From NCBI GenBank assembly GCA_963849325.1, contig CAWKHF010000010.1, forward strand, positions 256,001 to 320,000: a DNA stretch of 64,000 nt, in the 5' to 3' direction. Shown in pieces: positions 36,929 to 55,590 of the stretch (within the stretch, counting starts at the first letter, position 1; each line of letters opens with the position of its first letter). The notes beneath the pieces were generated by a model. The model was not told the DNA's origin, ran no database searches, and saw only the letters and a list, made by a program, of their open reading frames with translations. A program made the translations under genes and the position numbers. The DNA is from an uncultured Planctomycetota bacterium (lineage in GTDB: Bacteria; Planctomycetota; Planctomycetia; Gemmatales; Gemmataceae).

Positions 36929-36986
36929 TCAGAAAAGGTTTCAGGAACCTTTTTCGATCGAAAAAGGCTCCTGAAACCTTTTCTGA
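36929..36986. repeat. 58-bp near-perfect palindrome (AAAAGG..TCAGGAACCTTTT family)
   Basis: TCAGAAAAGGTTTCAGGAACCTTTTTCGA|TCGAAAAAGGCTCCTGAAACCTTTTCTGA, no loop, one mismatch. Confidence 0.92.
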
Positions 36987-37623: not shown

Positions 37624-37707
37624 ACATCTCGCGCGAGCGCGCGTGTTCGATAAGCGTTCCACTCGGACGGCGGCAAGCAATTTCAGAAGAGCCTCAAGAC
37701 GCACGCG

Positions 37708-38013
37708 GCCCAAACGCACCGTCACCTCATCAGCACCCTTCAGCCGCTCGTCCCAAACCACAAGCTCGAACGTGCCGTCGCTCCGTTGCAGCAGCAGTTC
37801 ATGCACGGTGGCCGGCTGCTCCGGGATGGAGTAATGGAGTTGGCCGGGCTTGGCGAGGGAACCCTTATCGGCCAGGGTCGTCGTGAGGTTGTGCAGGTAG
37901 ACGGCGGCTTTGCGCGGCGCGTAGTCCGACTTGAAAAACCCGAAGCTTTGATTGCCACCTTCGTCCGTGCGGTCGCGCAGAAGGTAGACGGCGGTGTAAC
38001 TCCAACCCCGCTT
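37708..38013 (-). pseudogene. Internal fragment of a glycoside-hydrolase-like gene
   Basis: KRGWSYTAVYLLRD..FGFFKSDYAPRKAAVYLHNLT..ELVVW reads as the C-terminal strands of a GH-A-like barrel plus a beta domain; no start codon or N-terminus. Confidence 0.55.
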
Positions 38014-38026
38014 GAGCGGACTATCC

Positions 38027-39502: not shown

Positions 39503-41296
39503 CTAGCGTAGCATATCCGTCAGCGCTCCGGGCGACCTTACGCCGTCCGTAACGGCGTGGTACGTCGGCGCGTCGGCGGGCAGGAAGGGAGTGAACGGCG
39601 GCATCTCCTCGCGGCCTAGGCGAAGCTCAAGCACGCCCGGCCGGTTGGTCCAGGACGAGCTGTCTTCCAGGGCTTCGTTCAACTCCTCGATGGTGCCCGC
39701 CGAGCCTACCCAGAGGCGGTGAGGGGGACCGAACCCCCGGGCGACCTTGGCCACGGAAATGGGAGAATACCGCGAGCACTCGATCCTCCCCTCGAAGTAG
39801 AGCTGTTGCCGGGTGACACACATGCCGTGCATGCCGTTGTTGAAAACGACGAAGAGAATAGGCAGCTGATGATCGACGGCGGTATGCACCTCGGCGCCGA
39901 GCATCAGGAAGGCACCATCGCCGCAGAAGACCATTGTCCGCGAGCCGCGCGGGGAGCCTATCTGCGCGCCGATGGCCCCGGCGATGGCGTAGCCCATGCC
40001 CCCCATCCCCAGGGCGATCGTGGCGCTGACGTTCGCAGGGATGCGCAGGTAGTGCAGGGCGGCCGCGGCACAGTTGCCGGCGTCGAAGAGCACGTGGCCT
40101 TTCGCGGGCAGGAACGGCTGAAGCATCTCGAGAGCCTGACTCTGTCGCAGATCTCCGGTCATGGGGACCGAGTGCGAACGGCACCTGTCCAGGGGCAGGT
40201 CGGGGGCCAACTCGGGCGTGAAGCGGGTGACGGGCACCGGGACGGGCACTCGGGGAACCACGTAGGCCTGGTCCGCTAACTGATTGAGTTGGTCGAAGAC
40301 GACTCCCGCGTCCGCCTCGATGGACAACGAGGAGCGGACGATGCGGGACACCTCGCCCATGTCGATGTTCACGACGGCCAACCGCTCCGGATGAAGGGCC
40401 TTCTGGATCGGCTGAGCCGTCATCACATTCAGGCCGGTTCCGACCGCGACGATGAGGTCCGCCTGCTCCGCCAGGAACCGATGCGCCGACGGCTCGCCGG
40501 CCACGCCCACGGTTCCCAGGTACAGAGGGTCGTCGTTGGGGAACACCCCCTTACTGGCGAGGGTCGTCGCCGTCCGCACCCCCAGGCGGCGCGCGAACGC
40601 GACGACTGCGGCGGGATTGCTGCACCGGTCCACTCCACTCCCGAGCAGCAGCACGGGTGTCTCGGCCGTGCGGATGGCGTCGAACAGTTTGGCGACCGCA
40701 TCGGCCGGCGCGTACCACAGGCCGTTCAGCTCGTTCAGACGGTCGGGCATCCAGCTGGGTCGTGGGCCGACGTCGCTGTCGAACAGGTCGCGGGGGATCA
40801 GCAGCACGGAGGGACCGGGCCGACCACTCATCGCGGCCGTGACCGCGCAGTCCAGGCACCGCCAGAATTGGCCGGGCTCCGTGATTCGCGCCTGATACTT
40901 GGAGATGGCGGCCCAGAGCCTGTCCGCGTTCACGGATCGACCGATGCCGGAAGAATCTTGAAAGGCGCCTCGACCTTCGAGCCGAGTAGGCGGTTGGCCG
41001 ACGATGGCCAGCATCGGCACCGACTCCGCGAACGCCTCGGCGACGCCCACGGCCAGGTTCATCATCCCGCCACCGGATGTGCTGCAGCAGACCCCCAGAG
41101 TGCGATGCACCCGGGCTCGGCAGTCGGCCATGAAGGCAGCGCCCACTTCGGACTTGGCGCACACGGAGCGGAAGCCCTCGCCGCCCAGCCGATGCACGGC
41201 GTCGTGCAGGTGCTCGATATTGGCGCCGCTGACACCAAACAGGTATCCCAGACCCCAGTCGCGCAAGGTCGTAACCAGAGCTTCTGCCAGTTTCAT
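39503..41296 (-). CDS. Thiamine diphosphate-dependent enzyme (acetolactate-synthase-like carboligase; NzsH/CqsB3-like by context)
   Basis: FGVSGA, SEVGAAFMAD, TSGGG, AFQD; ThDP motif GDGAF...VVFNN. Confidence 0.9.
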   Translation of the reverse strand: MKLAEALVTTLRDWGLGYLFGVSGANIEHLHDAVHRLGGEGFRSVCAKSEVGAAFMADCRARVHRTLGVCCSTSGGGMMNLAVGVAEAFAESVPMLAIVGQPPTRLEGRGAFQDSSGIGRSVNADRLWAAISKYQARITEPGQFWRCLDCAVTAAMSGRPGPSVLLIPRDLFDSDVGPRPSWMPDRLNELNGLWYAPADAVAKLFDAIRTAETPVLLLGSGVDRCSNPAAVVAFARRLGVRTATTLASKGVFPNDDPLYLGTVGVAGEPSAHRFLAEQADLIVAVGTGLNVMTAQPIQKALHPERLAVVNIDMGEVSRIVRSSLSIEADAGVVFDQLNQLADQAYVVPRVPVPVPVTRFTPELAPDLPLDRCRSHSVPMTGDLRQSQALEMLQPFLPAKGHVLFDAGNCAAAALHYLRIPANVSATIALGMGGMGYAIAGAIGAQIGSPRGSRTMVFCGDGAFLMLGAEVHTAVDHQLPILFVVFNNGMHGMCVTRQQLYFEGRIECSRYSPISVAKVARGFGPPHRLWVGSAGTIEELNEALEDSSSWTNRPGVLELRLGREEMPPFTPFLPADAPTYHAVTDGVRSPGALTDMLR

Positions 41297-41348
41297 GAGA
41301 GGGCCTTTCCATCGCTTGCCGAATGTGCCGTGTGTCTACTGCTTCCAA

Positions 41349-42350
41349 CTATGCCGGCTTCCAGTGGATGACAGCCGAGGCGGCGAAGTCTCCGGCGTGG
41401 GCAAATCCACCGAGCACGAGATGAGAGTTCGCCTTCAATTGCCCGCTGTCGATGGCCTCCTCGAGGCAGATCGGCAGGGCGGCGCCGAACAGGTTGCCGT
41501 GCCGCTCGAAGGTCGATACGTGTCTTTGCGTTGGCACCTGCAGCGCTTCGCGCCAGTTGCGCAGGAACAGGTTGTTGGGCTGGTTCGTGATGAGCGTGCC
41601 GATCTCACTGGGAGGAAGTTCGGCACGGCGGCAAGCCTCGCGGATGGCCTCCGGGACGATGCGGTTGGCACGGCTCATAATGTGGCACAGCTTCGCCTCG
41701 TTGAAATCCACGGAGGTACATGCCGTGCTCGGCTCCCACCATGCGGTGCCATCGGCACGGACGACAGCCATGTCGCCGGCATACTCGCAATAGTTCTGAT
41801 GCACGACCGCCTTGACCGGCGATTCCCCCGAGGCCACGAGATAGCCCACGCCACAGCCGTCGCCAGGGATGCGGGCCTGCTTGAGCTTGCGGGTCTGTTC
41901 ACTGCCGAACAGACGGCCGGCCGAATTCTGGACGTTGCACAACAGGGCCGTCTTCGCCCCGTGGCAGCTCATCAGCGCCTGGGCCTGGGCGATCATGTAG
42001 ACGAACGAGACGCATCCTCCATTGTGGATGTCGAGGATCCAGCTAGGGCGAATCCCCAGCGCCTTGGCGGCGTCGGCCCCGCAGCCGGTGAACGGCTGGT
42101 CCGGGGAGGTGACGTTGGTCATGAGGATATCAACGTCCTTGTGCAAGTTGAGGTTCAGGCGAGCCGCCAATTTGCGGGCGGCATGGACGATCATCACACT
42201 CGCCGTTTCATCGCGGGAAACGTGATGCCGCTGTTTCACGCCGCGAAACATGAGGGGCGCTCGCTCCGAATCGCTGTTCTGAAAGAAGGAGTTCTCGACG
42301 ATTCGTCGCGGCAGGTAACTGGCCGCGCCAACCAGGCTTACGGTCTTCAT
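41349..42350 (-). CDS. 3-oxoacyl-ACP synthase III (FabH-like) family protein
   Basis: ASYLP, DIHNGGCVSF (catalytic Cys), PGDGCG, TNQPN, HGNLFGA, GGFAHAG. ATG 42350 is translationally coupled to the upstream gene. Confidence 0.9.
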   Translation of the reverse strand: MKTVSLVGAASYLPRRIVENSFFQNSDSERAPLMFRGVKQRHHVSRDETASVMIVHAARKLAARLNLNLHKDVDILMTNVTSPDQPFTGCGADAAKALGIRPSWILDIHNGGCVSFVYMIAQAQALMSCHGAKTALLCNVQNSAGRLFGSEQTRKLKQARIPGDGCGVGYLVASGESPVKAVVHQNYCEYAGDMAVVRADGTAWWEPSTACTSVDFNEAKLCHIMSRANRIVPEAIREACRRAELPPSEIGTLITNQPNNLFLRNWREALQVPTQRHVSTFERHGNLFGAALPICLEEAIDSGQLKANSHLVLGGFAHAGDFAASAVIHWKPA

Positions 42351-42988
42351 GGCCGACCTCCCATGGTCATGGGCAGCCCGTTGGCATGGCGGTACTCGAG
42401 AATGTGCTTGAGGTTGTCTAGCTCGATCTTGTGGCCCGCGTAGAAGAACGGCCACATGTCCCCCACCCAGACCTTGCGGCCCTTGGGCGACCTGTCCGGG
42501 AACGGGTTGTTGTCGTAGTAGGGGTGCCGGCAGTTGGTCCAGAGCACGACACAGCCGGGCCGGTTGAGCACCAGCTTCGCGGGCACGACGCGCATCAGGT
42601 AGATCATCCACAGTTCGTCGCCCTGGTCCCAGGCGCAGTGGTAATCCACCGTCATCGCCTCGGGGTTGGCGACCACCCGTGTGTAGATCTTCGTGGCGCC
42701 GCCGATGCGGTCGGTGGCAACGACCATCCCGGTTTCGTCCATCGGCGTGAAATCGCGCAGGCTGTACGTCCACTCCTGCAGCGTGTACACATCGGCCAGG
42801 TACTCAAACGCCTTCTCGGGCGGGCAATCGACGTAATCCTGCAGCGAGCAATACTGGCCGTAAACCTCGTCGTGCGGGTAAACGGCGTGCGTCATTTCCA
42901 TCGTCAGATCGGTCATTTCATCCTTGCAGCAGTTCTCGATGCGACGTACGCCGGGTAGGCGGTCGATGGCAGCCGAAATGAGATTCAT
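42347..42988 (-). CDS. SRPBCC/START-fold cyclase-aromatase-like protein (NzsI/CqsB2-like by context)
   Basis: 213 aa from ATG 42988 (GGAG RBS); CPPEKAFEYLAD..LQEW, DYHCAWDQG, WMIYLMRV, C-terminal helix ELDNLKHILE typical of SRPBCC. Confidence 0.8.
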   Translation of the reverse strand: MNLISAAIDRLPGVRRIENCCKDEMTDLTMEMTHAVYPHDEVYGQYCSLQDYVDCPPEKAFEYLADVYTLQEWTYSLRDFTPMDETGMVVATDRIGGATKIYTRVVANPEAMTVDYHCAWDQGDELWMIYLMRVVPAKLVLNRPGCVVLWTNCRHPYYDNNPFPDRSPKGRKVWVGDMWPFFYAGHKIELDNLKHILEYRHANGLPMTMGGRP

Positions 42989-43096
42989 CGCGTGTACTCC
43001 TTGTTCGTAACTCGAGCAGTGAAATGGCAGACTTGAGGTCGAAGCGTGATGCCTTGCTAAAGTCTTATATTGCGTCCAATCGAAACTGTGACGGCT

Positions 43097-43248
43097 TGAG
43101 AGTCTGTTCCCGAAGCTCCCCTCTCCCCTGTACTCAGGGGAGAGGGGTTGGGGGTGAGGGGTGAGAAACCCACGAAAAACCCGCCCCCTCACCCCAACCC
43201 CTCTCCCCCGGAGTACCGGGGGAGAGGGGCTTTCGGAACAGACTCTGA
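43097..43248. mobile_element. MITE-like element (146 bp) with 11-bp terminal inverted repeats and TGA target duplication
   Basis: GAGTCTGTTCC (43100-43110) ... GGAACAGACTC (43235-43245), flanked by TGA (43097-99, 43246-48). The interior is two inverted CCCCTCACCCC.ACCCCTCTCCCC..GGGGAGAGGGG units. Confidence 0.7.
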
Positions 43249-43410
43249 TATCTCCGATCACCCCACGTAGGACTTCATCAGGCGCGGCCTCATCAAGCGT
43301 GCGCGGCGCCGGGATTGTTCCTGGCGGGCCTGTCACAAGTGATCGCGCGGGGGCTACCAGAGGGTGAAGAACATTCTCGTCATTGCGGATTTCAGACGGC
43401 GGATTGCAGA

Positions 43411-44592
43411 ATGAAGAAGCTACTCCCTGAGCATCTGCTGTCCCGGAAATCCGCCAGGCTCAAGCTGCCCTACTCGCTAACCACTGTCTGGCGACAACAG
43501 CTGCGCTATCTTCCGGCGGTGTTCGCCGTCGCCTTCAGTGCGGTCCTCAGCACCCTGCAGTGCGGACTTCTGGTGGGCATCCTCAACATCGCGGCCCGGC
43601 CGATCCACCGCAGCGATGCCCACGTCTGGCTGGCTTCTCCCGGCGTGCGTGGCCTGGGGTTTGGCCGTCCCATCCCTCTGGCCTGGAAGACCCGCCTGCT
43701 GTCGCAGCCGGAGGTAGAGCGAGTGGAAGAGTACCTGTGCGGCTTTGCCCAGTTCCAGAGGCCCGACGGCAGCACCGACCAGTGCAGCGTCGTCGGCATG
43801 AGGCTGGAGGCGGGCTCCCTGGGAGCGCTGGCGGACCTTACGCCGGAGATGCGCCAGAGCCTGACGCGGCCGGGCACGGCCGTGGTGTACGAGTCGGAAC
43901 TGCCGCTCCTGGGACTGCGGGATACGCCGGGAGAGGTCGGAGAGGTGGAGGGCCACCGTGTGGAGATTGTCGGCACCCTTCGGGGAGGCGACGGGGCAGG
44001 GTTGACTCCCGGGCTGTACTGTTCGCTGCGAACCGCTCGTGGGCTGTTGGCCTCGGTGTCGGGGCGACAGACGACTTACCTGTTGGCCCGGTGCCATGCT
44101 CCCGAACAAGGCCCTCTCCTGGCCCGAAAGCTGGAGGCGAGCTATCGAGACATGGACGCGATGACGAGCGGAGAGCTGGCCTGGCGAACCCAGTGTTACT
44201 GGCTGATCAAGACCCGGGCAGGGCTCGTCCTCGGCTTCGCCGCGGCGCTGGGCCTGATGGTCGGCGCGGTGGTCACTTCGCAGACGCTCTACGGGGCGAG
44301 CGTGGCCTCGCTCCGCGAGTACGCGGTCCTTCTCGCCCTGGGCATCCCACGTTGGCGGCTGCGGCGGCTGGTGCTCGGCCAGTCCTTCTGGGTCACTCTG
44401 GCCGGGCTCACGCTGGCCCTGCCGCTGACCGTGATCCTGGCCCACATCGCCCGCCCGATGAACGTGGAAGTGCTCCTACCGCCCTGGCTCGTGGCCGCGG
44501 TCGGAGGCCTTACGCTGGCGGTCGGCCTGCTGTCGGGGACCACCGCCCTGCGCTCGCTCCGCCAGGCTGATCCCGCCACGTTGCTGCGTTAA
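43411..44592 (+). CDS. ABC exporter permease, DevC/FtsX family (copy 1)
   Basis: RYLPAVFAVAFSA, periplasmic MacB-like domain, VVTSQTLY, REYAVLLALG, C-terminal ADPATLLR. Confidence 0.88.
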   Translation: MKKLLPEHLLSRKSARLKLPYSLTTVWRQQLRYLPAVFAVAFSAVLSTLQCGLLVGILNIAARPIHRSDAHVWLASPGVRGLGFGRPIPLAWKTRLLSQPEVERVEEYLCGFAQFQRPDGSTDQCSVVGMRLEAGSLGALADLTPEMRQSLTRPGTAVVYESELPLLGLRDTPGEVGEVEGHRVEIVGTLRGGDGAGLTPGLYCSLRTARGLLASVSGRQTTYLLARCHAPEQGPLLARKLEASYRDMDAMTSGELAWRTQCYWLIKTRAGLVLGFAAALGLMVGAVVTSQTLYGASVASLREYAVLLALGIPRWRLRRLVLGQSFWVTLAGLTLALPLTVILAHIARPMNVEVLLPPWLVAAVGGLTLAVGLLSGTTALRSLRQADPATLLR

Positions 44593-44607
44593 AGAGGAAA
44601 AAGGACC

Positions 44608-45324
44608 GTGAAGACACTAATCGCCCGTAACCTGACGCGCAGCTTCGGCAGCGGCGACACCCGCGTGGTCGCCCTGGACGATGTCTCTCTGGAGCTGCGC
44701 CCTGGGGAGTTCTCGCTGCTCATGGGGCCGTCGGGGTCGGGCAAGTCCACTCTCCTGGCCGTGCTCTCCGGGTTGGTGCCGCCCGACAGTGGCCAGGTCG
44801 TCGCCCTGGGCCAGAAGGTGTGGGCCCTGTCACCTCTCCAACGAGAGGAATTCCGCCGCCAATCGACCGGATTTATCTTTCAGGGCTACAACCTGTTCCC
44901 CGCCTTGACCGTCCGCGAGCAACTGGAGATGGTTTTGCTCTGGGCAGTCGGGGTGCCGCCCGACGAGGCCGAGCACAAGGTGGAGGCCATGCTGGACCTC
45001 CTGGGCCTGGCCGAGAAAGCCGACTGCCTCCCCGAGCAATTGTCCGGCGGCGAGAAGCAACGAGTGGCCATCGCCCGCGCCCTGATCAAGGATCCCCAAC
45101 TCCTCTTCGCCGACGAACCCACCAGCGCCCTCGACTGGCAGCGCGGCCGGCAGATCGTCGAGCTGTTGCAGGCCAGCGCCCGCGAGCGGGGGGCAGTCCT
45201 GGTCGTGGTCTCCCACGACAACCGGCTCCTCCCCTATGCCGACCGCGTGCTCCACCTCGAGGACGGCTGCCTCGATCGGCCGGAAGCGCCGGCTGGACCC
45301 GAACCCCACAAGAGGAGTCCATGA
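44608..45324 (+). CDS. ABC exporter ATP-binding protein, DevA/LolD family (copy 1)
   Basis: GPSGSGKS, LSGGEKQR, FADEPTSALD, VSHD. Confidence 0.95.
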   Translation: MKTLIARNLTRSFGSGDTRVVALDDVSLELRPGEFSLLMGPSGSGKSTLLAVLSGLVPPDSGQVVALGQKVWALSPLQREEFRRQSTGFIFQGYNLFPALTVREQLEMVLLWAVGVPPDEAEHKVEAMLDLLGLAEKADCLPEQLSGGEKQRVAIARALIKDPQLLFADEPTSALDWQRGRQIVELLQASARERGAVLVVVSHDNRLLPYADRVLHLEDGCLDRPEAPAGPEPHKRSP

Positions 45325-46373
45325 AAGTCTTCCGTCCCCGCACGTTGGTTTGGCTGCTGGCCGTGGCCGTGGTGCTGGTCGGCCTGAGCGGCGCCGCCGG
45401 CGTTTTCCGCCTGCCGCTGGCCCTGTTCGGCTGCAGGCAGCCGGATTCGGAACGGCCCGGCCTGCAAGGCGTGGAGTGCCTTGGCCGGGTCGATGTCGAG
45501 GGCGGCCTGCTCGAACTCGCTCCTGTCCGCTCGGGTCGTGTCGTGGCAGTGAGCGTCCACGAGGGAGAGGCGGTGCCTGCAGGGGCGGTGTTGCTGCGAC
45601 TGGATGAGCAGCCGGCCCAACTGCTCGTTCAGCAGGCCCGCGCGGCCCAGCAGGTGGCCGAGACCCAGGTCGCTCTTGCTGAGGAGGCGGCCAGGCTGCA
45701 CACCTTCCGGGTGGCCGGCCAGGAGGCGCTTGCCCGGGCGGCTCGGAATCGCGTGCCGGCCGCCCGCGAGCAGATGGAGCGTAAGGAACGACTCTTCGAC
45801 CAGGGACTGATCGACAAGGAGGAGAAGGCCGCCGCCCGGCAAGAGGTGAAAACGCTGGAGTCCCTGGCGGAAGCTGAGGAGAAGCGGGTGGAGGGCTTGC
45901 GCGGCGAGAACCCTTGTTTGCGCGTTCAGCAGGCCAGGGCGGAGCTGGCGCGGGCGGAGGCGCTGCTGGCGGAGGCGCGGTACGCTCTGGACCAGTGCGT
46001 GGTGAAAGCGCCCGTGGCAGGCAGTGTGCTCCGGCTGCGCTGCAGCGCCGGCGAGGTCATCTCACCGCAGCTGGCCGTAATCGTGTTCGCCCCGGCGCGG
46101 CCTCGTATCGTCCGTGTCGAGGTGGAGCAGGAGCTGATCCATCGGGTCGAGGTCAGTCAGCCCGCCGTGGTGAGGGACGAAATGCACCCGGAACGATCCT
46201 GGAACGGCCGGGTCGTCCGGATGAGCGACTGGTACTCCGACAATCCCACCATCCCCCGCCGGATGGCAAGGTTCACGGACATCCCGACGGTGCAGTGCGA
46301 GATCGCGCTGGACCCCGGACACCCGCCATTGCGCATCGGCCAGCGGATGACGGTGCTTCTTGGCGGCCCGTGA
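45321..46373 (+). CDS. HlyD/DevB-family membrane fusion protein (copy 1)
   Basis: ATGA overlap with the ATPase; N-terminal TM, lipoyl-like GRVVAVSVHEGEAV, coiled coil, KAPVAGSV, LRIGQR. Confidence 0.9.
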   Translation: MKVFRPRTLVWLLAVAVVLVGLSGAAGVFRLPLALFGCRQPDSERPGLQGVECLGRVDVEGGLLELAPVRSGRVVAVSVHEGEAVPAGAVLLRLDEQPAQLLVQQARAAQQVAETQVALAEEAARLHTFRVAGQEALARAARNRVPAAREQMERKERLFDQGLIDKEEKAAARQEVKTLESLAEAEEKRVEGLRGENPCLRVQQARAELARAEALLAEARYALDQCVVKAPVAGSVLRLRCSAGEVISPQLAVIVFAPARPRIVRVEVEQELIHRVEVSQPAVVRDEMHPERSWNGRVVRMSDWYSDNPTIPRRMARFTDIPTVQCEIALDPGHPPLRIGQRMTVLLGGP

Positions 46374-46755
46374 CCCAGCCGTGACTGCAGCAACGGGTCG
46401 TGGGACTCGTGCTGGTCGGGCATAGCTCGCTGCAGCGCATCGAAGGTCTTCCGCCTTCGCTCGCATGGGCTGCGGCAACCCGGCTGGGCATCCGTCTCCA
46501 AATCGCATCCGGTCTGTCTTCTCTTGACCACATCGGTGAGGACGAACCCGCCGTTCTCCGTATGGTCGCCTCGTTCTCCCTCTCGATTTGCGAAGCGATT
46601 GTCACAGCTCCCCGTTCAGGTCGAAGAAGAGATGGAGCGGAAACGCTTCCTCCCCTGATAACCACACGCTTGGGAGATGGGCATGGCGCCGGCCTCCAGC
46701 CGCGCCGGGTCCGTGCATCGTCTTGCTTCTTGGATTCTGAACAACGGAAGGTCCC

Positions 46756-49503
46756 ATGAGCCACATGCTACTGAGTGTCCCGAGTCCACTGCTGTCCTCC
46801 GCAACGAGCGGATCGCCGGCGCCGGCCCCCTCCGCGGAACGAGAGCCGCGCCGTCAGGGGCAGACCGAGGGACATCCATACGCGCGCTGCGTCAACCCCT
46901 ACCTGGCCGACCTGCTGAATAAGCTGTGGCTGGACAAGCGGTTCGTGAGCGGCGAGGGCTGTGAGCTAATCGACGACACGGGCCGGCGCTACCTCGACGC
47001 CGTGGCAGCCTACGGGGCACTGCCCTTCGGCTTCAATCCTCCCGAGATCTGGCGCAGCTTGCTGGAGGTGCAGCGGAGCGGCGAGCCGAGCTTCGTGCAG
47101 CCCTCGTTGCTGGATGCGGCCGGCGAGCTGGCCGAACGCTTGCTGGCCGTGGCGCCGGCGAACCTCCGCTACGTGACGTTCGCCAACAGCGGCGCCGAAG
47201 CGGTCGAGGCCGCCGTCAAGATGTGCCGGGTCGCCACCGGGCGGCTGGGCATCCTGGCCACGAATGGCAGCTTCCACGGCAAGACCCTGGGGGCGCTGTC
47301 CGCGACCGGCAACGCCCATTACCAGGACGGCTTCGGCGCTCCGGCCGGCGATTTCCGCCACATCCCCTTCGGCGATGCGGCCGCGCTGCGCCGCGAGCTG
47401 GAGGCCCATCCGGGCTACTATGCCGCCTTCCTGGTCGAACCGATCCAGGGCGAGGGCGGCGTGATCGTGCCGCCGCCGGGCTATCTCGTCGAGGTGCGCG
47501 ACATCTGCACCCGCGCGGGCGTTCTCCTGGTGCTGGACGAGATTCAGACCGGGCTGGGACGAACCGGCGCCCTGTTCGCCTGCGAGGCCGAGGACGTTCA
47601 GCCGGATGTCCTGACGCTCGCCAAGGCCCTGGGCGGCGGACTGCTCCCGATCGGGGCCGTCCTCAGCAGCGAAAAAGCCTACTCCGAGACGTTCGCCCTC
47701 AAGCATTCCTCGACGTTCGCGGCCAACGCCCTGGCCTGCCGAGCCGGGCTGGCCGCCCTCGACCTGCTGACGCGCGACGACGGCGCCCTGGTGCGGCGCG
47801 TGGCTCGCAACGGCGCCCGTCTCCAGGAAGGCTTGCTGGCCTTGCAACGGCGCTTTCCGCAGTTGATCGCCGAGGTGCGCGGCCGGGGCTTCTTGCTCGG
47901 CCTCCGCTTCACCACCGATCGTGCTCTCTGGCCGGAGGGTCTGCTGGGCGTGGCGCTCGAACAGGAGTTCTTTACGCCCGTGTTCGCCAGCTACATGCTC
48001 AACGTGGAAGCGGTTCGCGTCGCCCCGACCCTCAACGGCAAGGCGGTCCTCCGCATCGAACCGGCGTTGACGATGTCCTGGCCGCAGTGCCAGCGGTTGC
48101 TGTCCGCGCTGGAGCGGGCGCTGACCGTGTTCGCGGCCGGAGACACGGGGCGGATTCTGGCATCGATCCTGGAAGGTCGGCCCTGCCCGCCGGCGCGGTC
48201 GATGCCGCTGCCGAAGCCGTGGCTTGAGGTCAAGCTCCGTCCAGCCGAACGCCGCTTCGCCTTCCTGATGCACCCCCTCGACTATGCCAACGCCGTCGAT
48301 TTCGATCCGTCGCTGGCCTACCTCGATGCGTCCTCTCTGGAGACGGTGGTGCGCAAGGTCGCTTCGTTCGTGGAGCCGTTCGTGGTCAGCCACGGGCGTG
48401 TGGTGTCGGCGACCGGCGAGACGATCTACGGCGAGTTCATCACCCTGCCGCGCACCGCCGAGGAGCTGACGCGGATGCGTCGCAAGGAGGCGATCGAGTA
48501 CGTCCGAGGGGCGCTGCACCTGGCGCGAGACCGCGGCGCTCAGCTCGTCGGGCTGGGGGCGTTCACCTCCGTGGTGACGCTCGGCGGCCGAGCGGTGGCG
48601 GAAGAGGGAGTGCCGATCACCACCGGCAATTCGTACACGTCGGTCGCGTCCGCCGAGGCCATCCGCAAGGCCCTGGCGCTGGTGGGTCGCGGGGAGAAGA
48701 CGCCTCCTACAGCGGCCATCATCGGAGCGACCGGCGCCATCGGCCGTACCCTGGCCCTGCTGCTCGCCGAGGACGTGGGCCGGCTCATTTTGGTGGGCAA
48801 CCCGGACTCCTCCGCCAAGTACGTCCGCGAGCGCTTGCTGGCGACGGCCGGCGATGTCGTCCGCTTTGTCAGCGCCCGGCACGCCGAGGGTTCGACCTTC
48901 CGGCCGGGCACCTTCGCCGCCCAGTTGCTCGCTCATCTGCCCGGTGGCGTGGTCGAGCAAGCCGCGATCGACGAGGTCGTCAGCCGGCTGGAACAGACCG
49001 GCTGGTTGGCGATCACGCAGGAGACGGCCGCCGCCGTGCGCCAGGCTCGGGTGGTGGTCACGGCGACCAGCGCCACCGGCACCGTCGTGCGGCCGGAAGA
49101 CCTGCGCCGGCGGGCGGTGGTTTGCGATGTCTCGCGGCCGGCCAACGTCGGCCAGGAGATCCTCGAAACGCGGCCCGACGTGCTGGTGATCGACGGCGGC
49201 GTCATCGCGGCGCCCGCCGGATCGGCCCTCAGCCAATTCGGACTGGGCGACGGCCTGATCTACGGCTGCATGGCGGAAACGATGATGCTCACCCTGGCCG
49301 GGCACCTGCGCAACACCAGCCTCGGCACCGACCTGACGCCCGAGACGCTGCACCTGTTGCGGACGCTGGCCGACAAGCATGGCTTCCACGTCGCCAAGCT
49401 ACGCAGCTTCGGCCGGCCGCTGGAAGAAGCCGACTTTCACCGCTTCCGCTCGGCGGAGGCTTCCAACAGGAGTGACAACCGTCTGTCACGAGCGGCATCC
49501 TAA
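46756..49503 (+). CDS. Class III PLP aminotransferase fused to a C-terminal acyl-ACP-reductase-like NAD(P)-binding domain
   Basis: N: NSGAEAVE, SFHGKT, EPIQGEGG, DEIQTGLGRTG, TLAKALGGG. C: FAFLMHP, GLGAFTS, TTGNSYT, GATGAIG, DVSRP, YGCMAE. Confidence 0.9.
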   Translation: MSHMLLSVPSPLLSSATSGSPAPAPSAEREPRRQGQTEGHPYARCVNPYLADLLNKLWLDKRFVSGEGCELIDDTGRRYLDAVAAYGALPFGFNPPEIWRSLLEVQRSGEPSFVQPSLLDAAGELAERLLAVAPANLRYVTFANSGAEAVEAAVKMCRVATGRLGILATNGSFHGKTLGALSATGNAHYQDGFGAPAGDFRHIPFGDAAALRRELEAHPGYYAAFLVEPIQGEGGVIVPPPGYLVEVRDICTRAGVLLVLDEIQTGLGRTGALFACEAEDVQPDVLTLAKALGGGLLPIGAVLSSEKAYSETFALKHSSTFAANALACRAGLAALDLLTRDDGALVRRVARNGARLQEGLLALQRRFPQLIAEVRGRGFLLGLRFTTDRALWPEGLLGVALEQEFFTPVFASYMLNVEAVRVAPTLNGKAVLRIEPALTMSWPQCQRLLSALERALTVFAAGDTGRILASILEGRPCPPARSMPLPKPWLEVKLRPAERRFAFLMHPLDYANAVDFDPSLAYLDASSLETVVRKVASFVEPFVVSHGRVVSATGETIYGEFITLPRTAEELTRMRRKEAIEYVRGALHLARDRGAQLVGLGAFTSVVTLGGRAVAEEGVPITTGNSYTSVASAEAIRKALALVGRGEKTPPTAAIIGATGAIGRTLALLLAEDVGRLILVGNPDSSAKYVRERLLATAGDVVRFVSARHAEGSTFRPGTFAAQLLAHLPGGVVEQAAIDEVVSRLEQTGWLAITQETAAAVRQARVVVTATSATGTVVRPEDLRRRAVVCDVSRPANVGQEILETRPDVLVIDGGVIAAPAGSALSQFGLGDGLIYGCMAETMMLTLAGHLRNTSLGTDLTPETLHLLRTLADKHGFHVAKLRSFGRPLEEADFHRFRSAEASNRSDNRLSRAAS

Positions 49504-49561
49504 TTGGTCGGATGTCGTGTCCTGGTCCCTGAATCCACTCGTAATTCCAAGGAGATAGTCA

Positions 49562-50755
49562 ATGACTCTGTCTTACCAGCTCTACGAAACGATCAATCAG
49601 ATCCCCCTGGACGACTGGCGCGAGGCATCCCAGGAGGATTCGCACGGCTTCATGGACCCGAACTTCTTGCTTGCCCTGGAGAAGGGATTGGAGGGCCAGG
49701 CGCGAATCTTTCACGTCCTGATCCGCGCGGAGGACGGCCGGCCCGCCGCCTGCGCCAGCCTGTCGCTCCTGCCGCTCGATCTTTTGCTGCTGGCGGGGCC
49801 GCGCCTTCAGAAGGCGTTCGGCTGGGTCCGCAAGCTGGCCCCCAACCTGGGGAAAGTAAACGTCCTCCTGTGTGGCCTGCCCTTTTCGGCGGGGCAGAGC
49901 CACCTGGCGTTCGCGCCGGGCGCCAACCGGGCACGGGCGGTGCTGCTGCTGGACACCCTGCTGCGGCAACTGGCCCGGAGCCACCGCGCTCGGCTGATCG
50001 TCTTCAAGGAATTCGGCGACGATGCCCGCGCGTACCTGGACCCGTTGCTCGAGCACGGCTATTGCCGTGCCGCCAGCCCCGCGTCGTACGTGATGCCGAA
50101 ATCGTTCGCCAGCCTGGCCGACTACTGTGCCGCCCTCAAGCGGCACTACCGTTACAACATCCGCAGTTCCCAGCAGAAGTTCGAGCGGGCCGGCTGCCGG
50201 GCCGTCCACCTGGAGGATCCCGACGAGATCCGCCGCGTGTACACGCCAGAAGTGCATCAGCTCTATGAAGCGGTCGTCGGCAAGTCCGACCTCAAGCTCG
50301 AAGTTCTGCCGCATGCTTTCTTTCACGAGTTGGTGAATCGGCTTCCAGGCCAGGTCGCGTTGACGGTGGTCTATCGCCAGGAGCGCGCGATCGCTATCGC
50401 CTGGGGCCTCTCGGCCGATCCCGAGTATCACGGCCTGTTTTGCGGGATCGACTACGAACACAACGCCGAGTGCGATCTCTATTTCAACGTCGTGTACCAG
50501 CATCTCGACTACGCTTTCCGGCGCGGCAGCCGGCTCATCACCCTGGGCCAGACCGCGGAAAGCTTCAAGACCCGCCTCGGCTGCGTGGGCAAGGCACGCC
50601 ACGTCTATGCTCGCGGGGCAGGCCCGCTCCTGTCCCGGGTGTTGCGGCGCAGCGCCGGCTTCCTCTTCCCCGATCGACCGATCGCGCCCGCGCACGACGT
50701 GTTCAAGGCGATCGAGCCGGCCCGTCCGCGCAAGCAGGCGCTGCCCGTCAGTTGA
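49562..50755 (+). CDS. Large GNAT-fold acyltransferase (FemAB / BioF2-like acetyltransferase type)
   Basis: 397 aa; IVFKEF, SFASLADYCAALKRHYRYNIR, GIDY, LYFN, LGQTAESFKTRLG; AAGGAG RBS. Confidence 0.82.
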   Translation: MTLSYQLYETINQIPLDDWREASQEDSHGFMDPNFLLALEKGLEGQARIFHVLIRAEDGRPAACASLSLLPLDLLLLAGPRLQKAFGWVRKLAPNLGKVNVLLCGLPFSAGQSHLAFAPGANRARAVLLLDTLLRQLARSHRARLIVFKEFGDDARAYLDPLLEHGYCRAASPASYVMPKSFASLADYCAALKRHYRYNIRSSQQKFERAGCRAVHLEDPDEIRRVYTPEVHQLYEAVVGKSDLKLEVLPHAFFHELVNRLPGQVALTVVYRQERAIAIAWGLSADPEYHGLFCGIDYEHNAECDLYFNVVYQHLDYAFRRGSRLITLGQTAESFKTRLGCVGKARHVYARGAGPLLSRVLRRSAGFLFPDRPIAPAHDVFKAIEPARPRKQALPVS

Positions 50756-50844
50756 TTTCGTTCGATTCGAGACGGTGAGTCGGAATACGAGCTATCCCCG
50801 AGCGTGTAGGTAAAGCCCCCCGGAGAAGGAAGCGAGTTGGACCT

Positions 50845-51963
50845 ATGGGTTATGCACTGACAATCCTGTGGCACGATCGACAGCGCTATCTGCCCGCCAT
50901 GCTGGCGGTGACGTTCAGCGCCCTGCTAGTGGCCCTGCAATTCGGCCTGCTCCTGGGGACGTTCTCGATGGTGTCGATCCCCATCGACCATACCAGCGCC
51001 GACGTCTGGGTGGGCCAACCCCAGGTCAGCAGCGTTGACATGAGCCTGTCCGTGCCCGAGCGCTGGCGCGACCGGATGGAAGGTCTGCCCGAGATCGTCC
51101 AGACGGAGCCTTACATCCAGTCGTTTATGAGCTGGTCCAAACCGCGCGGCGGCACGGAACACATCATCGTCATCGGCTCGCGGCTGCACGACGGCGCCCT
51201 CGGAGCGGTGACGGAGTTGACGCCGCAGCTGCGCCGGAAGCTGGTCGAACCGGGCGCGGTGGTGGTGGACCAGGCGGAATTCGGACGCCTGGGTTTGACC
51301 AAGGGGATTGGCGAAAGTGCCGAGGTCAATGGCCTGCGGGTACGGGTCGTCGGCGTGGTGCGCGGTCTCAAGGGGCTGGGAGGACCATACATCTTCTGTT
51401 CGCTGGAGACGGCCCGCCGTCTGGTGCGGATGGCGCCGGACGAGGTGACGTACCTGCTGGCCCGTTGTCGCAATCCGCAAGACGCCGGGCGGGTCGTGGC
51501 GCGGTTGCGCCGCTATCCGAACATGTCGGCGTTCACCAGCGCCGAATTCTCGTTCCGCTCGCGCTGGCACTGGCTGGTGATGAGCGGCGGCGGCATCGCG
51601 CTGGGCTGTGCCGCCCTGCTGGGCCTGCTGGTCGGGGCGGTGGTCACCAGCCAGACGCTGTACGCGGCGACGGCCGCCTCGTTCCGCGAATTCGCGGTGC
51701 TGCGAGCGCTGGGCGTGCCGCAGAGGCGCCTGGCCGGTACCATCCTGGCGCAGGCCTGCTGGCTGGGGGTCGCCGGCGTCCTGCTGGCCCTGCCGGTCGT
51801 CTACGCCCTCTCCAGCGTCGCCGGCTGCCTGGGCGCTCGCGTGTTCTTGCCGCCATGGGTGCTGGGTTCGTCCGCCGGTCTCACTCTGATTACGGCCCTG
51901 ATCGCCGGCCTAGCCGCTCTGCGCTCGCTACGCCACCTGCAACTGGCGACGCTATTGCGGTGA
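50845..51963 (+). CDS. ABC exporter permease, DevC/FtsX family (copy 2)
   Basis: RQRYLPAMLAVTFSA, VVTSQTLY, REFAVLRALG; paralog of 43411..44592. Confidence 0.9.
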   Translation: MGYALTILWHDRQRYLPAMLAVTFSALLVALQFGLLLGTFSMVSIPIDHTSADVWVGQPQVSSVDMSLSVPERWRDRMEGLPEIVQTEPYIQSFMSWSKPRGGTEHIIVIGSRLHDGALGAVTELTPQLRRKLVEPGAVVVDQAEFGRLGLTKGIGESAEVNGLRVRVVGVVRGLKGLGGPYIFCSLETARRLVRMAPDEVTYLLARCRNPQDAGRVVARLRRYPNMSAFTSAEFSFRSRWHWLVMSGGGIALGCAALLGLLVGAVVTSQTLYAATAASFREFAVLRALGVPQRRLAGTILAQACWLGVAGVLLALPVVYALSSVAGCLGARVFLPPWVLGSSAGLTLITALIAGLAALRSLRHLQLATLLR

Positions 51964-52034
51964 AAGTCGTCACATTCTGATCTCCGCCAAGAATGAGATG
52001 ATGAATAGGGCCATTAAGAGGCACTAACCAAATA

Positions 52035-52100
52035 GGCGAGCGGGGGGCGTAAGCCCCCTGTTGACGGCGAAAAACAGGGGGCTTACGCCCCCCGCTCGCC
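52035..52100. repeat. REP-like perfect palindrome (GGCGAGCGGGGGGCGTAAGCCCCCTGTT)
   Basis: 28-bp arms 52035-52062 and 52073-52100, 10-nt loop. Confidence 0.92.
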
Positions 52101-52131
52101 AAAAAGTTACAGCTTCTAAGGAGATAGTGAG

Positions 52132-52874
52132 ATGTTTCCGGAAAAGCCAACTCTGAGAGCTTGCAACCTGGTCCGCACGTTCGAGCAGAACGACATCGTA
52201 ACGACCGTCTTGCGGGACGTGTCGATGGCGCTGCATCGCGGCGAGCTGTCCCTGCTCATGGGGCCTTCGGGCAGCGGCAAATCGACGTTGCTCGCCGTGC
52301 TCTCCGGGTTGCTCCGTCCGACGGCCGGGCAAGTGCTGGCCCTGGGACAGGATTACTGGAGTCGAAGCGCCATCGAGCAGGAGCGATTCCGGCAGGGGCA
52401 TTTCAGCTACATCTTCCAGGGTTACAATCTGCTGCCGGCCTTGACGGCGCGGCAGCAACTGGAGCTGGTGTTGCGCTGGGCGGAGGGAACGACCGTGCGC
52501 GCGAGGCTCGGCGGCGAACCGAGCGGATGCTGGGGATGCTGGGGCTTAGTGGCAAGGCGCATCTGCGGCCGGCCCAGCTCTCCGGCGGCGAAAAACAGCG
52601 GGTGGCCATCGGCCGTGCCCTGGTCATGGAACCGGATTTCTGCTTCGCGGACGAGCCAACCAGCGCCCTGGACTGGACGCATGGCGAGGAAGTCATTCGG
52701 CTGCTGCAAGAAGCCGCCCGCCAGCGCGGCACCACCGTCCTGGTGGTCAGCCATGACGCACGCCTCCTGCCATATGCGGATCGGTCGTTCCACCTGGAAG
52801 ACGGTCGCTTGCACGAGGAGCGTGTGCTCCAGACAACGAGTGCGGAAGAAGAACTGGTTGCGGCGAGCATCTGA
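52132..52874 (+). CDS. ABC exporter ATP-binding protein, DevA family (copy 2); frameshift near 52495
   Basis: GPSGSGKS in the 52132 frame; LSGGEKQR, FADEPTSALD, VSHD in the 52161 frame; TAAGGAG RBS. Confidence 0.9.
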
Positions 52875-52904
52875 ACGGGGTGAGAAATCCCCCTGGAGGT
52901 CCTC

Positions 52905-53963
52905 ATGGCGAAAACAAGGCGATTGGGCTGGGTGCGTTGGCTGCTGGGCGGGATCGTGTTCACGGCCGGCATGGCCGGCGCGGGAGCGAACTTCCCGAAG
53001 TCCAGCGCCGTCAGCGCGCCGGCGGACGCGAGTCCTGTCGCGGAGCCGGTGGCTTGCTCCGGCCACGTGGATGTCAAGCACGGAGTCGTCTCGCTCTCGC
53101 CGAGTCCGTCCGGCCGAGTGGCCGAGGTGCTGGCCGAGGAGAACGAAACCGTCAAGGCCGGCGCCTTGTTGCTGCGCCTGGATGATACCGTGGCCCGGCT
53201 GCGCATCCAAGAAGTCGAGGCGGACCTGGCGGCGTCTCGACTTCAGCTGGCCCAGGCCCGCAAACGGCCTGAGCAACACCAGGCCCGGCTCGCCCAGGTG
53301 CAGGCCGGCATCGAGGCGGCGCAGAACCGCCTGGCCGCGGCCCGGCACGAACGCGATCGGAAGACAGACTTGCTCGCCAAGGACTTGCTCCCGGAGGCGG
53401 AACTCAACATCGCCGGCGATCAGGTGAAGGAGGCGGAAGCGCTGCTGCGGGCGGAAAGGGAGAAACAGGCCGAGCTGCAGCTGCACGATCCCGCCGCCGA
53501 CATCCGCCGGGCGGAGGTGAACGTCCGGGCCAGCGAGGCCCGGCTGCAACAGGCCCAGGAAGCTCTCAAGGAATGTAGTCTGCGGGCGCCCTCCGACGGC
53601 AAGGTACTCCGCGTCCTCGTGGGGCCGGGCGAGATGCTCGGGGCACAAGCGAAGCAGCCCGCGCTGCTCTTCTGCCCGGACGGGGCGCGCTTCATCCGGG
53701 CCGAGGTGGAACAGGAGTTCGCCCACCGGGTCCGGGTCGGCGATCCGGCGACCATCCGCGATGAAAGTGATGACCCGTGCGTCTGGCGGGGTCGTGTGAG
53801 CCTGATGTCCGACTGGTTCACGCAACGACGCTCGGTCCTGCAAGAGCCGCTCCAACTGAATGATGTCCGTACCCTGGAATGCCGGATCATCCTGGAGCCG
53901 GGTCAACCGCCGTTGCGGATTGGCCAGCGCGTCCGGGTGCTGATCGGCACGAACCCTTCCTGA
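52905..53963 (+). CDS. HlyD/DevB-family membrane fusion protein (copy 2)
   Basis: TM anchor, SGRVAEVLAEENETVKAG, coiled coil, LRAPSDGKV, LRIGQRV; GGAGG RBS. Confidence 0.92.
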   Translation: MAKTRRLGWVRWLLGGIVFTAGMAGAGANFPKSSAVSAPADASPVAEPVACSGHVDVKHGVVSLSPSPSGRVAEVLAEENETVKAGALLLRLDDTVARLRIQEVEADLAASRLQLAQARKRPEQHQARLAQVQAGIEAAQNRLAAARHERDRKTDLLAKDLLPEAELNIAGDQVKEAEALLRAEREKQAELQLHDPAADIRRAEVNVRASEARLQQAQEALKECSLRAPSDGKVLRVLVGPGEMLGAQAKQPALLFCPDGARFIRAEVEQEFAHRVRVGDPATIRDESDDPCVWRGRVSLMSDWFTQRRSVLQEPLQLNDVRTLECRIILEPGQPPLRIGQRVRVLIGTNPS

Positions 53964-53988
53964 CAAGGATTGGCAAAGCGAGGACCGA

Positions 53989-54832
53989 ATGATTTCGCCT
54001 TCTTACTACAACTGGCGGACCGAAGAGCGGCCCGCGCCCTGGTCTGGATCGTGCTGCCGAGCGAACCTCTCCTGCCAAGAGCGGCATCGGGGTCCGCGTC
54101 TTCCTCGATGTCCCCTACCGGGTTAACGCGGGAGAGCGGCACAAGCTGGATTTGTACCTGCCCAACCAGCGGGAGTTTCCGGTAGTCGTCTTCGCACACG
54201 GCGGAGCCTGGGTTTCGGGCGACAAGGCACTGCACGGCCACCTGGGTTGTTTCCTGGCGAAGCACGGCATCGGCGCCGTGCTGGTGAATTACCGGCTGGC
54301 GCCGCAGGTGCGTCATCCCGTCCCGACGCAGGATCTGGGCCGGGCCTTCGCCTGGACGCACCGCCACATCCGCCGCCTACGGCGGCGATGCCGATCGGCT
54401 CTACCTGTGCGGCCACTCCGCGGGCGGACACAGCGCCGCGCTCTTGGGAACGGATGAATCGTTCCTGGCCGACGAGGGACTTGGCTTCGAGCACGTCCAG
54501 GGCGTGATCGCCATTAGCGGCGTTTACAAGATCCACTGGAACGTCACCCTGGCCCGTCTAGGCTTCGTCTTCCGCAACAGCGATAAGACGGCCGCCTCGC
54601 CGCTCTGGAACATCCAGGCGGGGTGTCCGCCCTTCCTGGTCCTGCCGCCGGCAAGGAGCTTTGGACGCTCTCCAGCCAGGCGTTCGCGTTTCACAAGACG
54701 CTTCTGCGGCACAAGTGCCGGTCGCGCTTGCTGGTGGCCCATGGGGAGGATCACAGCTCGATCATCCAGACCGTCTCTTCGCCCTCGGCCAGCCACGGAG
54801 AGGCGATGGTGAAGTTTATCCGGGGAGGATGA
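53989..54832 (+). CDS. Alpha/beta hydrolase (HSL / BD-FAE-like); at least 3 frameshifts
   Basis: KLDLYLP, FAHGGAW, VNYRLAP, CGHSAGGH (nucleophile Ser), AISGVY, ASP, GEDH, spread across frames. Confidence 0.75.
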
Positions 54833-54879
54833 ACGCGGTCGGTTTGGGCACTGCTATGTAACCACGTCTTGCAGCACCT

Positions 54880-55531: not shown

Positions 55532-55590
55532 TCCGAGCCTGAAGCGTAAGTGAAGGAAGACCAAAACTTCGCTTACGCTTCAGGCTCGGA
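55532..55590. repeat. REP-like palindrome (CCGAGCCTGAAGCGTAAG family)
   Basis: 24-bp arms 55532-55555 and 55567-55590, one mismatch; just downstream of the DUF3500 stop. Same family as 6220-6273. Confidence 0.88.

Follow-up and report, generated by a model that had tools for sequence, protein, structure and literature searches.

A divergent gene block in a planctomycete genome: probably two separate small biosynthetic modules, one of carbazole type and one for aminoacyl fatty amines

The gene block considered here occupies positions 39503 to 54857 of a window of 64,000 nucleotides (G000:C10:256001-320000) from a bacterium placed among the planctomycetes by the labels of its nearest homologues, and its closest described counterparts lie in the carbazole clusters of Streptomyces and in pathways to fatty amines. 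The carbazole core is a three-gene unit, CqsB3/CqsB1/CqsB2 (NzsH/NzsJ/NzsI; CbzD/F/E), for a thiamine diphosphate (ThDP)-dependent enzyme, a KAS III-like condensing enzyme and a cyclase (PMC7466098, PMC11610953). The active-site residues of the cyclase CqsB2 are Glu105, Tyr144, Tyr172, His206 and Glu209, and the triad has already been noted in a review as widespread (PMC7466098). The gene table of the seven-gene carbazomycin (cbz) cluster contains no acyl carrier protein (ACP) (PMC11610953). In the tambjamine YP1 pathway PtTamH, with an N-terminal class III transaminase and a C-terminal reductase resembling cyanobacterial acyl-ACP reductase (AAR), makes dodecylamine from C12 acyl-ACP, acyl-CoA not being a substrate (PMC9594044). 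KecF, of koreenceine synthesis, has the same transaminase-first order (PMC6498172), and in PigE the order is reversed with the reductase first (PMC8341465).

A further step is known from the azodyrecin and valanimycin pathways, where a fatty acid of primary metabolism passes through aldehyde and amine to a tRNA-dependent transferase, and where the cluster also encodes an ABC transporter and an alpha/beta hydrolase (PMC9379638, bioRxiv 10.1101/2023.10.13.562208). VlmA, which performs the tRNA-dependent step in azoxy pathways, belongs to PF09924 (PMC9379638). In azodyrecin synthesis the fatty amine is N-hydroxylated and then aminoacylated, and the azdH mutant, in which the N-hydroxylase is missing, makes alanyl amides of the amine (bioRxiv 10.1101/2023.10.13.562208). 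Other tRNA-dependent enzymes, FemX, DhpH-C, PacB and Orf11/Sbb17 among them, have a double GNAT fold whose hallmarks are a basic helix at the start of domain 2 and a conserved Phe-Lys pair near the C-terminus (PMC12945691).

The planctomycete block holds relatives of both kinds of system side by side, and it is very probably two independent biosynthetic modules gathered in a variable genomic island. The full explanation favoured here, to which we give a probability of about 0.7, is that module A (39503-46373) is a carbazole-type pathway and module B (46460-54857) one for aminoacyl fatty amines. The sequences themselves show which genes are present, that their catalytic motifs are intact, which folds they encode and that the two sets are distributed separately; substrates, products, exporter assignments and the part played by the hydrolase are predictions. 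The divergent layout of about 15 kb reported in the first-pass annotation of this DNA was confirmed, with every named gene present at its coordinates. All genes of the block are real, and two in the right arm are frameshifted:

39503-41296, minus strand: ThDP-dependent carboligase of module A, 597 aa; three TPP Pfam domains and the CqsB3/NzsH position in the triad.
41349-42350, minus strand: KAS III-like condensing enzyme of module A, 333 aa; PF08541 and alignment with FabH; its gene overlaps the cyclase stop through ATGA.
42347-42988, minus strand: CqsB2-like SRPBCC-like cyclase of module A, 213 aa; match to PDB 6ipv and WM[IV]YL sister group in the tree.
43411-46373, plus strand: exporter 1 (module A), by Pfam, NCBIfam and orthologues in genome G080.
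43411-44592, plus strand: FtsX-type permease of exporter 1.
44608-45324, plus strand: ABC ATPase of exporter 1.
45321-46373, plus strand: HlyD-type membrane-fusion protein of exporter 1.
46460-46755, plus strand: module B's own upstream region; blastn similarity to genome G009 begins at 46460, just past the end of exporter 1, and the region is single copy in the genome.
46756-49503, plus strand: TamH-type class III aminotransferase::reductase fusion of module B, 915 aa; PF00202, PigE and AAR matches, and motifs.
49562-50755, plus strand: Fem-type double-GNAT transferase of module B, 397 aa, predicted to be aminoacyl-tRNA-dependent; PF13480 and PF04339, and fold.
50845-53963, plus strand: exporter 2 (module B), by Pfam, NCBIfam and orthologues in G009 and G081.
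50845-51963, plus strand: permease of exporter 2.
52132-52874, plus strand: ATPase of exporter 2, with a frameshift near 52497.
52905-53963, plus strand: membrane-fusion protein of exporter 2.
About 53989-54832, plus strand: alpha/beta hydrolase (BD-FAE type) of module B; PF20434, three indels relative to the intact G009 gene; follows exporter 2 in G009 and G081.

The first-pass annotation had joined the two arms into one pathway and had fixed co-occurrence in other genomes beforehand as the test that could refute this. The arms were not linked in any other genome or locus searched, which covered 150 relatives, 251 other genomes of the family, 80 cyclase loci and 33 fusion loci. Instead, either arm, together with its exporter, is conserved whole in a genome in which the other was not found, and the single-pathway proposal is not supported. 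Of the 251 genomes, three have the cyclase (G016, G075 and G080), 24 the reductase domain and 11 the GNAT, and in none were cyclase and reductase both found; neither the reductase nor the GNAT of module B was found in any of those three. G080, which is 91% complete, has the triad and exporter 1 in the same divergent layout at 66-75% DNA identity. Unrelated genes follow there, over 40 kb of contig. In G009, a 97% complete genome of the same genus, positions 46460-54857 of the window recur as one block of 8450 alignment columns at 87% DNA identity. The block starts about 300 bp before the fusion and ends shortly after the hydrolase, its neighbours differ on either side, and the cyclase was not found in that genome, where KAS matches are only FabH-like, at 22-31%. 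In G081 the fusion, exporter 2 and hydrolase are kept with other enzymes between them.

The locus collections point the same way. No module B enzyme was seen in the best 80 of at least 590 confirmed cyclase relatives from a genome scan, which were kept for locus reading (61 of them with at least 8 kb upstream). Nor was a triad seen in 33 metagenome fusion loci (of the 28 that are full-length, 17 extend at least 7.5 kb upstream), the remainder of 79 after exclusion, before counting, of 46 that matched the aminotransferase part only, at 31-35%; one of the 33 duplicates a module B locus that had entered the count before. No cyclase came from a search, with the cyclase only, of 400 genomes sampled across the phylum; of five further triad genomes, G702 alone has a reductase match, a distant one (36-37%) lying away from the triad locus. 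By these comparisons it is the gap that follows exporter 1 and precedes the fusion, and not the divergent promoter, that separates the modules. The first-pass annotation was thus right that both exporters are present and wrong to count exporter 1 in the right arm, as in G080 it travels with the left. Module B is 87% identical to G009 while the downstream flanking genes are 79-83% identical, a difference that suggests recent transfer of module B as a unit.

In module A the proposal of a CqsB1/2/3-like triad is borne out by the cyclase. The 213-aa protein has no Pfam match, and it matches CqsB2 (PDB 6ipv) with an E value of 6.4e-54 at about 48% identity (92 identities counted by eye). Four of the five active-site residues are identical, CqsB2 Tyr144, Tyr172, His206 and Glu209 being Y130, Y158, H186 and E189 here, and these four are invariant in 82 of 82 homologues. 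The fifth, Glu105, is replaced by Asp93; Asp is present in 81 of 82 loci and occurs also within the clade that carries the CqsB2 motif, WMRY. The KAS III-like enzyme keeps Cys113 and Asn286 and has Asn256 where FabH has its catalytic His, as do all 81 homologous loci. For the ThDP enzyme, in which E50 and the GDG and NN motifs are intact, the best PDB matches are BbmA (E 2.6e-60) and CsmA (E 1e-42), on which the literature search found no paper.

All three triad genes stand together in 78 of the 80 best cyclase loci, the two exceptions ending at contig edges, and the hosts include Mycobacterium, Nocardia, Streptomyces, Myxococcota, Bacteriovoracaceae and Planctomycetota. The neighbours of the planctomycete triads vary: MMPL proteins (L001, L002, L005), another ABC exporter (L006), an O-methyltransferase with a P450 (L004), and an O-methyltransferase with exporter 1 (G080). 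As in the carbazomycin cluster, an O-methyltransferase adjoins the triad in G080, L004 and L012; no close orthologue of the G080 enzyme was found in the genome of the window (best 27%). Class I/II aminotransferases flank related triads. At L065, in a record named Candidatus Anammoxibacter, the order is ThDP-cyclase-KAS and the cyclase groups with those of Bacteriovoracaceae, not with those of other planctomycetes.

A tree of 56 cyclase rows, 35 picked from the window and 82 loci and 21 near-full-length ones from 150 cluster representatives, places the window cyclase in an eight-row planctomycete clade with support of 96/84. On this basis the Streptomyces carbazole core has in module A an uncharacterised sister lineage, and the left arm would operate like that core. 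Since the clade of the window cyclase is separate from the WMRY clade, the tree does not establish membership in the core itself. Compared with the Streptomyces sets, the three-gene unit, the four catalytic residues and the cluster without an ACP are shared. The order cyclase-KAS-ThDP, the WM[IV]YL group and Asp for Glu105 are distinct, as are the lack at the window locus of a tryptophan aminotransferase, prenyltransferase and methyltransferase, the three-part ABC exporter alongside, and the planctomycete host.

The ThDP enzyme would couple an aryl-pyruvate, probably indole-3-pyruvate from housekeeping transamination, with pyruvate. The CqsB2-like cyclase would close an oxygenated aromatic ring, and exporter 1 would secrete the product. 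A carbazole is the likeliest product, by a modest balance of probability. No carrier-protein domain (PF00550) was found in the window, and there are 12 matches elsewhere in the genome, three of them in short frames that are possible free-standing ACPs. That the acyl carriers of primary metabolism serve in place of a dedicated ACP, as had been proposed, is plausible, because the gene table of the carbazomycin cluster likewise lists none.

The first gene of module B is the fusion, and here the likeness to TamH that had been proposed is upheld by domain order and motifs. The C-terminal half matches PigE (E 8e-32) and cyanobacterial AAR (E 5e-16). The class III transaminase precedes the thioester reductase as in TamH, and the PLP (pyridoxal phosphate) Lys289, a GxxGxxG motif at 657 (GATGAIG) and Cys838 (GCMAE) are all present. 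By analogy the protein should make a fatty amine as TamH does. What it shares with PtTamH and KecF is the N-terminal class III transaminase, the C-terminal AAR-like reductase, the PLP lysine, GxxGxxG and the catalytic cysteine (PMC9594044, PMC6498172); it differs in lacking a TamA-like ligase-ACP, bipyrrole genes or a type II polyketide synthase (PKS) and in having a Fem-type transferase as its partner. With no TamA-like ligase-ACP and no bipyrrole genes in the cluster, a tambjamine pathway does not fit. The PigD/PigE logic of the first-pass annotation also breaks down, because in 78 of the 80 loci the ThDP enzyme goes together with the cyclase and KAS III-like enzyme. The block has the two domains of PigE and a ThDP enzyme nearby (PMC8341465), but in reverse order, with no other pig genes, and with a ThDP enzyme that is a member of the triad. 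A PigD/PigE pathway to 2-methyl-3-n-amylpyrrole (MAP) was discarded as a candidate, since the fusion scores 545 bits against the NF053554 cut-off of 850 and is not reductase-first. A triad-type ThDP enzyme was found in none of the 33 metagenome fusion loci nor in a further set of 12 regions.

The transferase that follows was modelled from 73 of 90 homologues found, with a pLDDT of 91. Foldseek gives FemX at rank 1 (E 2e-13), and in structural comparison FemX, Sbb17 and FemA, all aminoacyl-tRNA-dependent, fill ranks 1-4 with Z scores of 20.8-21.4; a VIA Z of 21.4 goes with a root-mean-square deviation of 4.9 over 305 aligned residues. Other tandem GNATs reach at most 18.4 and MprF-type domains about 17. 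A basic helix at the start of domain 2 (194-209 in the model) has K/R in 75-99% of the 73 rows at positions 193, 197, 201, 202, 205 and 206. Phe335-Lys336, found in 71 of 73 rows, may hold the equivalent of the catalytic lysine of FemX (Lys305) and DhpH (Lys329), which it fits by position and by the Phe328-Lys329 pair. The 'N-acylation' assigned to this enzyme in the first-pass annotation is therefore revised, tRNA-dependent aminoacylation being more likely from the fold ranking, the basic helix and the Phe-Lys pair. Relative to FemX, DhpH-C, PacB and Orf11/Sbb17 the shared features are the double-GNAT fold, the domain 2 basic helix and the Phe-Lys near the C-terminus (PMC12945691), and the differences are an identity of 10-16% and a predicted acceptor that is a fatty amine, not a peptide or amino sugar.

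The company kept by such fusions is consistent with this. Detailed reading, over wider regions, of 18 fusion loci drawn from genome matches and including the window gave ten with a Fem-type gene within 9 kb, three with a PF09924 gene instead, three with neither and two cut by contig ends. Two different tRNA-dependent families thus recur beside the same amine-making fusion. An acyl-CoA-dehydrogenase-like flavoenzyme is present in all three PF09924 genomes, in the locus in G081 and G043 and elsewhere, on a different contig, in G006. A search with the G081 flavoenzyme, not VlmH, as query found none in G000 (85% complete), G009 or G203.

The reductase domain would release fatty acyl-ACP as aldehyde, which the transaminase domain would convert to a primary fatty amine. 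The Fem-type enzyme would then move an amino acid from aminoacyl-tRNA onto the amine. The N-aminoacyl fatty amine would leave through exporter 2, and the hydrolase may edit or recycle it. For the window this sequence of acyl-ACP, aldehyde, amine, N-aminoacyl amine and export is the simplest reading. Every step is predicted, and the donor may instead be an acyl thioester; the odds that an N-aminoacyl fatty amine is the product are put at about even. An aliphatic azoxy product was considered and rejected, as the block has no PF09924 gene and the flavoenzyme was not found in G000 or G009. No azoxy bond is predicted, because no N-hydroxylase-like flavoenzyme was found. The likeness to azodyrecin and valanimycin extends from the supply of the amine to the transporter and hydrolase, and the formation of an aminoacyl amide when the N-hydroxylase is missing is that of the azodyrecin mutant. 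The window differs in that its reductase and transaminase are fused and its transferase is PF13480/PF04339, not PF09924. With a balance of probabilities that favours neither side, module B on its own would be an undescribed tRNA-dependent route to N-aminoacyl fatty amines in planctomycetes, an amide-forming sister of the azoxy pathways.

Related loci have features of their own. L117:5523-20000 (G081:C3:925.5-940 kb) holds an azodyrecin-like gene set in a planctomycete, with a fusion, a 137-aa protein, a DszC-like flavoenzyme, a desaturase, two FAD oxidoreductases, a PF09924 gene, exporter 2 and a hydrolase; the 137-aa protein is without a Pfam match, and a G048 protein in the same position is SRPBCC-type. 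L121:1717-11609 (G006) and L122:3056-11465 (G043) combine a fusion and a PF09924 gene with a YegS-type kinase of PF19279, the VlmJ family (PMC9379638), and are candidate valanimycin-like azoxy clusters. The G006 locus adds a candidate ferritin-like protein (Atlas score 0.92, a lead only) and the G043 locus the flavoenzyme. In the genome of the window itself, G000:C2:961866-965689 (L120:9866-13689) has a second fusion, of PigE order, facing a Fem-type GNAT that is 39% identical, and the same pair is in G003, G007, G009 and G038. At L119:9545-16518 (G146) and L143:808-7838 a fusion stands directly behind a nonribosomal peptide synthetase (NRPS) with a nitroreductase-type domain, the G146 fusion carrying a TubC_N docking domain. 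Many full-length fusions on metagenome contigs (L132-L164; 46-55% identity) are alone among housekeeping genes.

DevBCA is the glycolipid exporter of heterocyst cyanobacteria, and the first-pass annotation had invoked it in its reading of the block. The two exporters share its permease, ATPase and membrane-fusion trio, and their permease and ATPase score best against the NCBIfam models DevC and DevA respectively. All scores, however, are far below the DevA, DevB and DevC cut-offs (for TIGR01185, TIGR02982 and TIGR02971, 57 against 290, 225 against 296, and 66 and 74 against 129, the frameshifted second ATPase not being scored), and the genome holds five copies of the type, three besides those of the block, one of them beside a PKS. 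The glycolipid argument has no sequence support, and nothing in the genes points to a glycolipid cargo. The two permeases of the block are 43-44% identical to each other, compared with 75-79% (G080) and 95% (G009) to their own orthologues. Exporter 1 orthologues in G080, at 58-79% identity, have the same divergent position beside the triad. For exporter 2 the permease is 95% and the membrane-fusion protein 89% identical to those of G009, and the permease is 69-81% identical to G081. At G000:C12:553678-567110 a type I PKS region is divergent to a further copy of the exporter type.

Compared with the intact G009 orthologues, two nucleotides are inserted near 52497 in the exporter 2 ATPase, and the hydrolase carries indels at three places, near 54025, 54370 and 54645. 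These frameshifts are probably sequencing errors, since paralogues elsewhere in the assembly are also split. Were the four indels across the two genes real, the island could be decaying and module B export lost, and short gene-like fragments near 37705-38015 would fit. This is judged improbable given that all five core enzymes are intact with a G+C content at third codon positions of 0.80-0.87, that other genes of the assembly also have split reading frames, and that exporter paralogues could supply the ATPase. A different way to save a single pathway is to couple module B's fatty amine with the acyloin or cyclised product from module A, giving an exported nitrogen-containing lipid or alkylamino-carbazole. 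Some facts do weigh against separate modules: exporter 1 and module B run in the same direction with 382 bp between them, where no terminator-like site was found, the comparison genomes are mostly incomplete metagenome-assembled genomes, and only about 0.3 double carriers would be expected by chance from 3 and 24 carriers in 251. For that last reason the zero overlap speaks for independence of inheritance, not for exclusion. Aminated and N-acylated carbazoles also exist, CqsB1/CqsB2 accept 3-hydroxymyristoyl-CoA (PMC7466098), and module B, closer to G009 than its flanks are, may be a recent arrival that could have been recruited. Even so there is little chance of such a hybrid: no second genome with both arms linked turned up among those searched, each arm has its own exporter, module B has its own upstream region, and no joining enzyme is evident. 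Slimmer still is the chance that this lineage has newly joined the modules, so that a tRNA-derived aminoacyl fatty amine, or the free amine, is coupled to a catechol or quinone ring, yielding an exported alkylamino-carbazole lipid without PKS, NRPS or dedicated ACP.

The two-module explanation is open to challenge also on what each module makes. Module A might follow the same three-step logic to a ring other than carbazole, from phenylpyruvate, hydroxyphenylpyruvate or an aliphatic keto acid. The window cyclase is outside the 16-row clade (100/98) that holds all WMRY rows, CqsB2 itself not being among the rows of the tree; its identity to CqsB2 compares with 68-80% among characterised carbazole cyclases; Asn stands in place of His in the KAS; and neither a tryptophan aminotransferase nor an O-methyltransferase was found at the window locus. 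Against this, the homologues all keep four of the five catalytic residues in the indole-cyclising site, and carbazomycin-type O-methyltransferases and class I/II aminotransferases stand beside related triads. A non-carbazole ring is accordingly a tentative possibility that deserves to be kept in mind. For module B the alternative is an N-acyl fatty amide, a ceramide-like or wax-like lipid, with the GNAT using acyl-CoA or acyl-ACP. Tandem GNATs and N-myristoyltransferases match the fold as well (Z 15-18), the margin over other tandem GNATs being about 3 Z units, and the JGI label of the family is 'predicted N-acyltransferase'. The family profile finds no Fem protein by sequence, nor does a single-sequence search find any solved relative. 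Of the ten Fem-type loci four have the TamH order; the six of PigE order, the copy on C2 of the same genome included, come mostly from close kin and so are not independent. Genome G165, moreover, pairs a distant GNAT homologue with a class I/II PLP enzyme. An N-acyl amide is nonetheless rather unlikely, with tRNA-dependent enzymes as the top four fold matches, a conserved basic helix and Phe-Lys motif, and a PF09924 gene replacing the GNAT in three loci.

The assembly (G000) is of 8.16 Mb in 14 contigs and is 85% complete, and G+C content across the block is flat. A scan for promoters and terminators gave no sigma-70-like site, and its six terminator-like sites compare with 9.7 in shuffles and are uninformative. 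The repeat search of the block gave no boundary repeats and no insertion-sequence ends, and its palindromes are genome-wide repeats. One lies in the divergent promoter region:

43097-43246, no strand assigned: dispersed palindromic intergenic repeat with inverted repeats; 75 matching places in its own genome and many in G009 and G080; not cluster-specific.

Further palindromic intergenic repeats are at 52035-52100, 55532-55590 and 36929-36986, with 76, 182 and 4 matching places in the genome. The stretch at 37705-38015, 310 bp that are 88-90% identical to G009 and G006 and lie between genes for an ECF sigma factor and a Gfo/Idh/MocA protein, resembles a gene remnant and fits a variable island.

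The enzyme types are all known and each module is a variation on known logic, so that what is new is the combination, not the chemistry. In the open-access literature searched there was no paper on a planctomycete carbazole-type cluster and none that pairs a TamH-type fusion with a Fem-type transferase, and the words carbazole and alkaloid did not come up in a word search of a 2025 review of planctomycete metabolites (PMC12078418). Nor did the literature searched contain a product for the sister lineage of module A. That lineage of carbazole synthases is widespread, with at least 590 genome matches. Planctomycetes have few linked gene-compound pairs, and the block offers two small, directly testable gene sets. 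If the proposed chemistry is true, two enzymes of module B would be enough to lead from fatty acyl-ACP and aminoacyl-tRNA to a cationic aminolipid or surfactant; the route would be useful as a biocatalyst and may represent a precursor state of the azoxy pathways.

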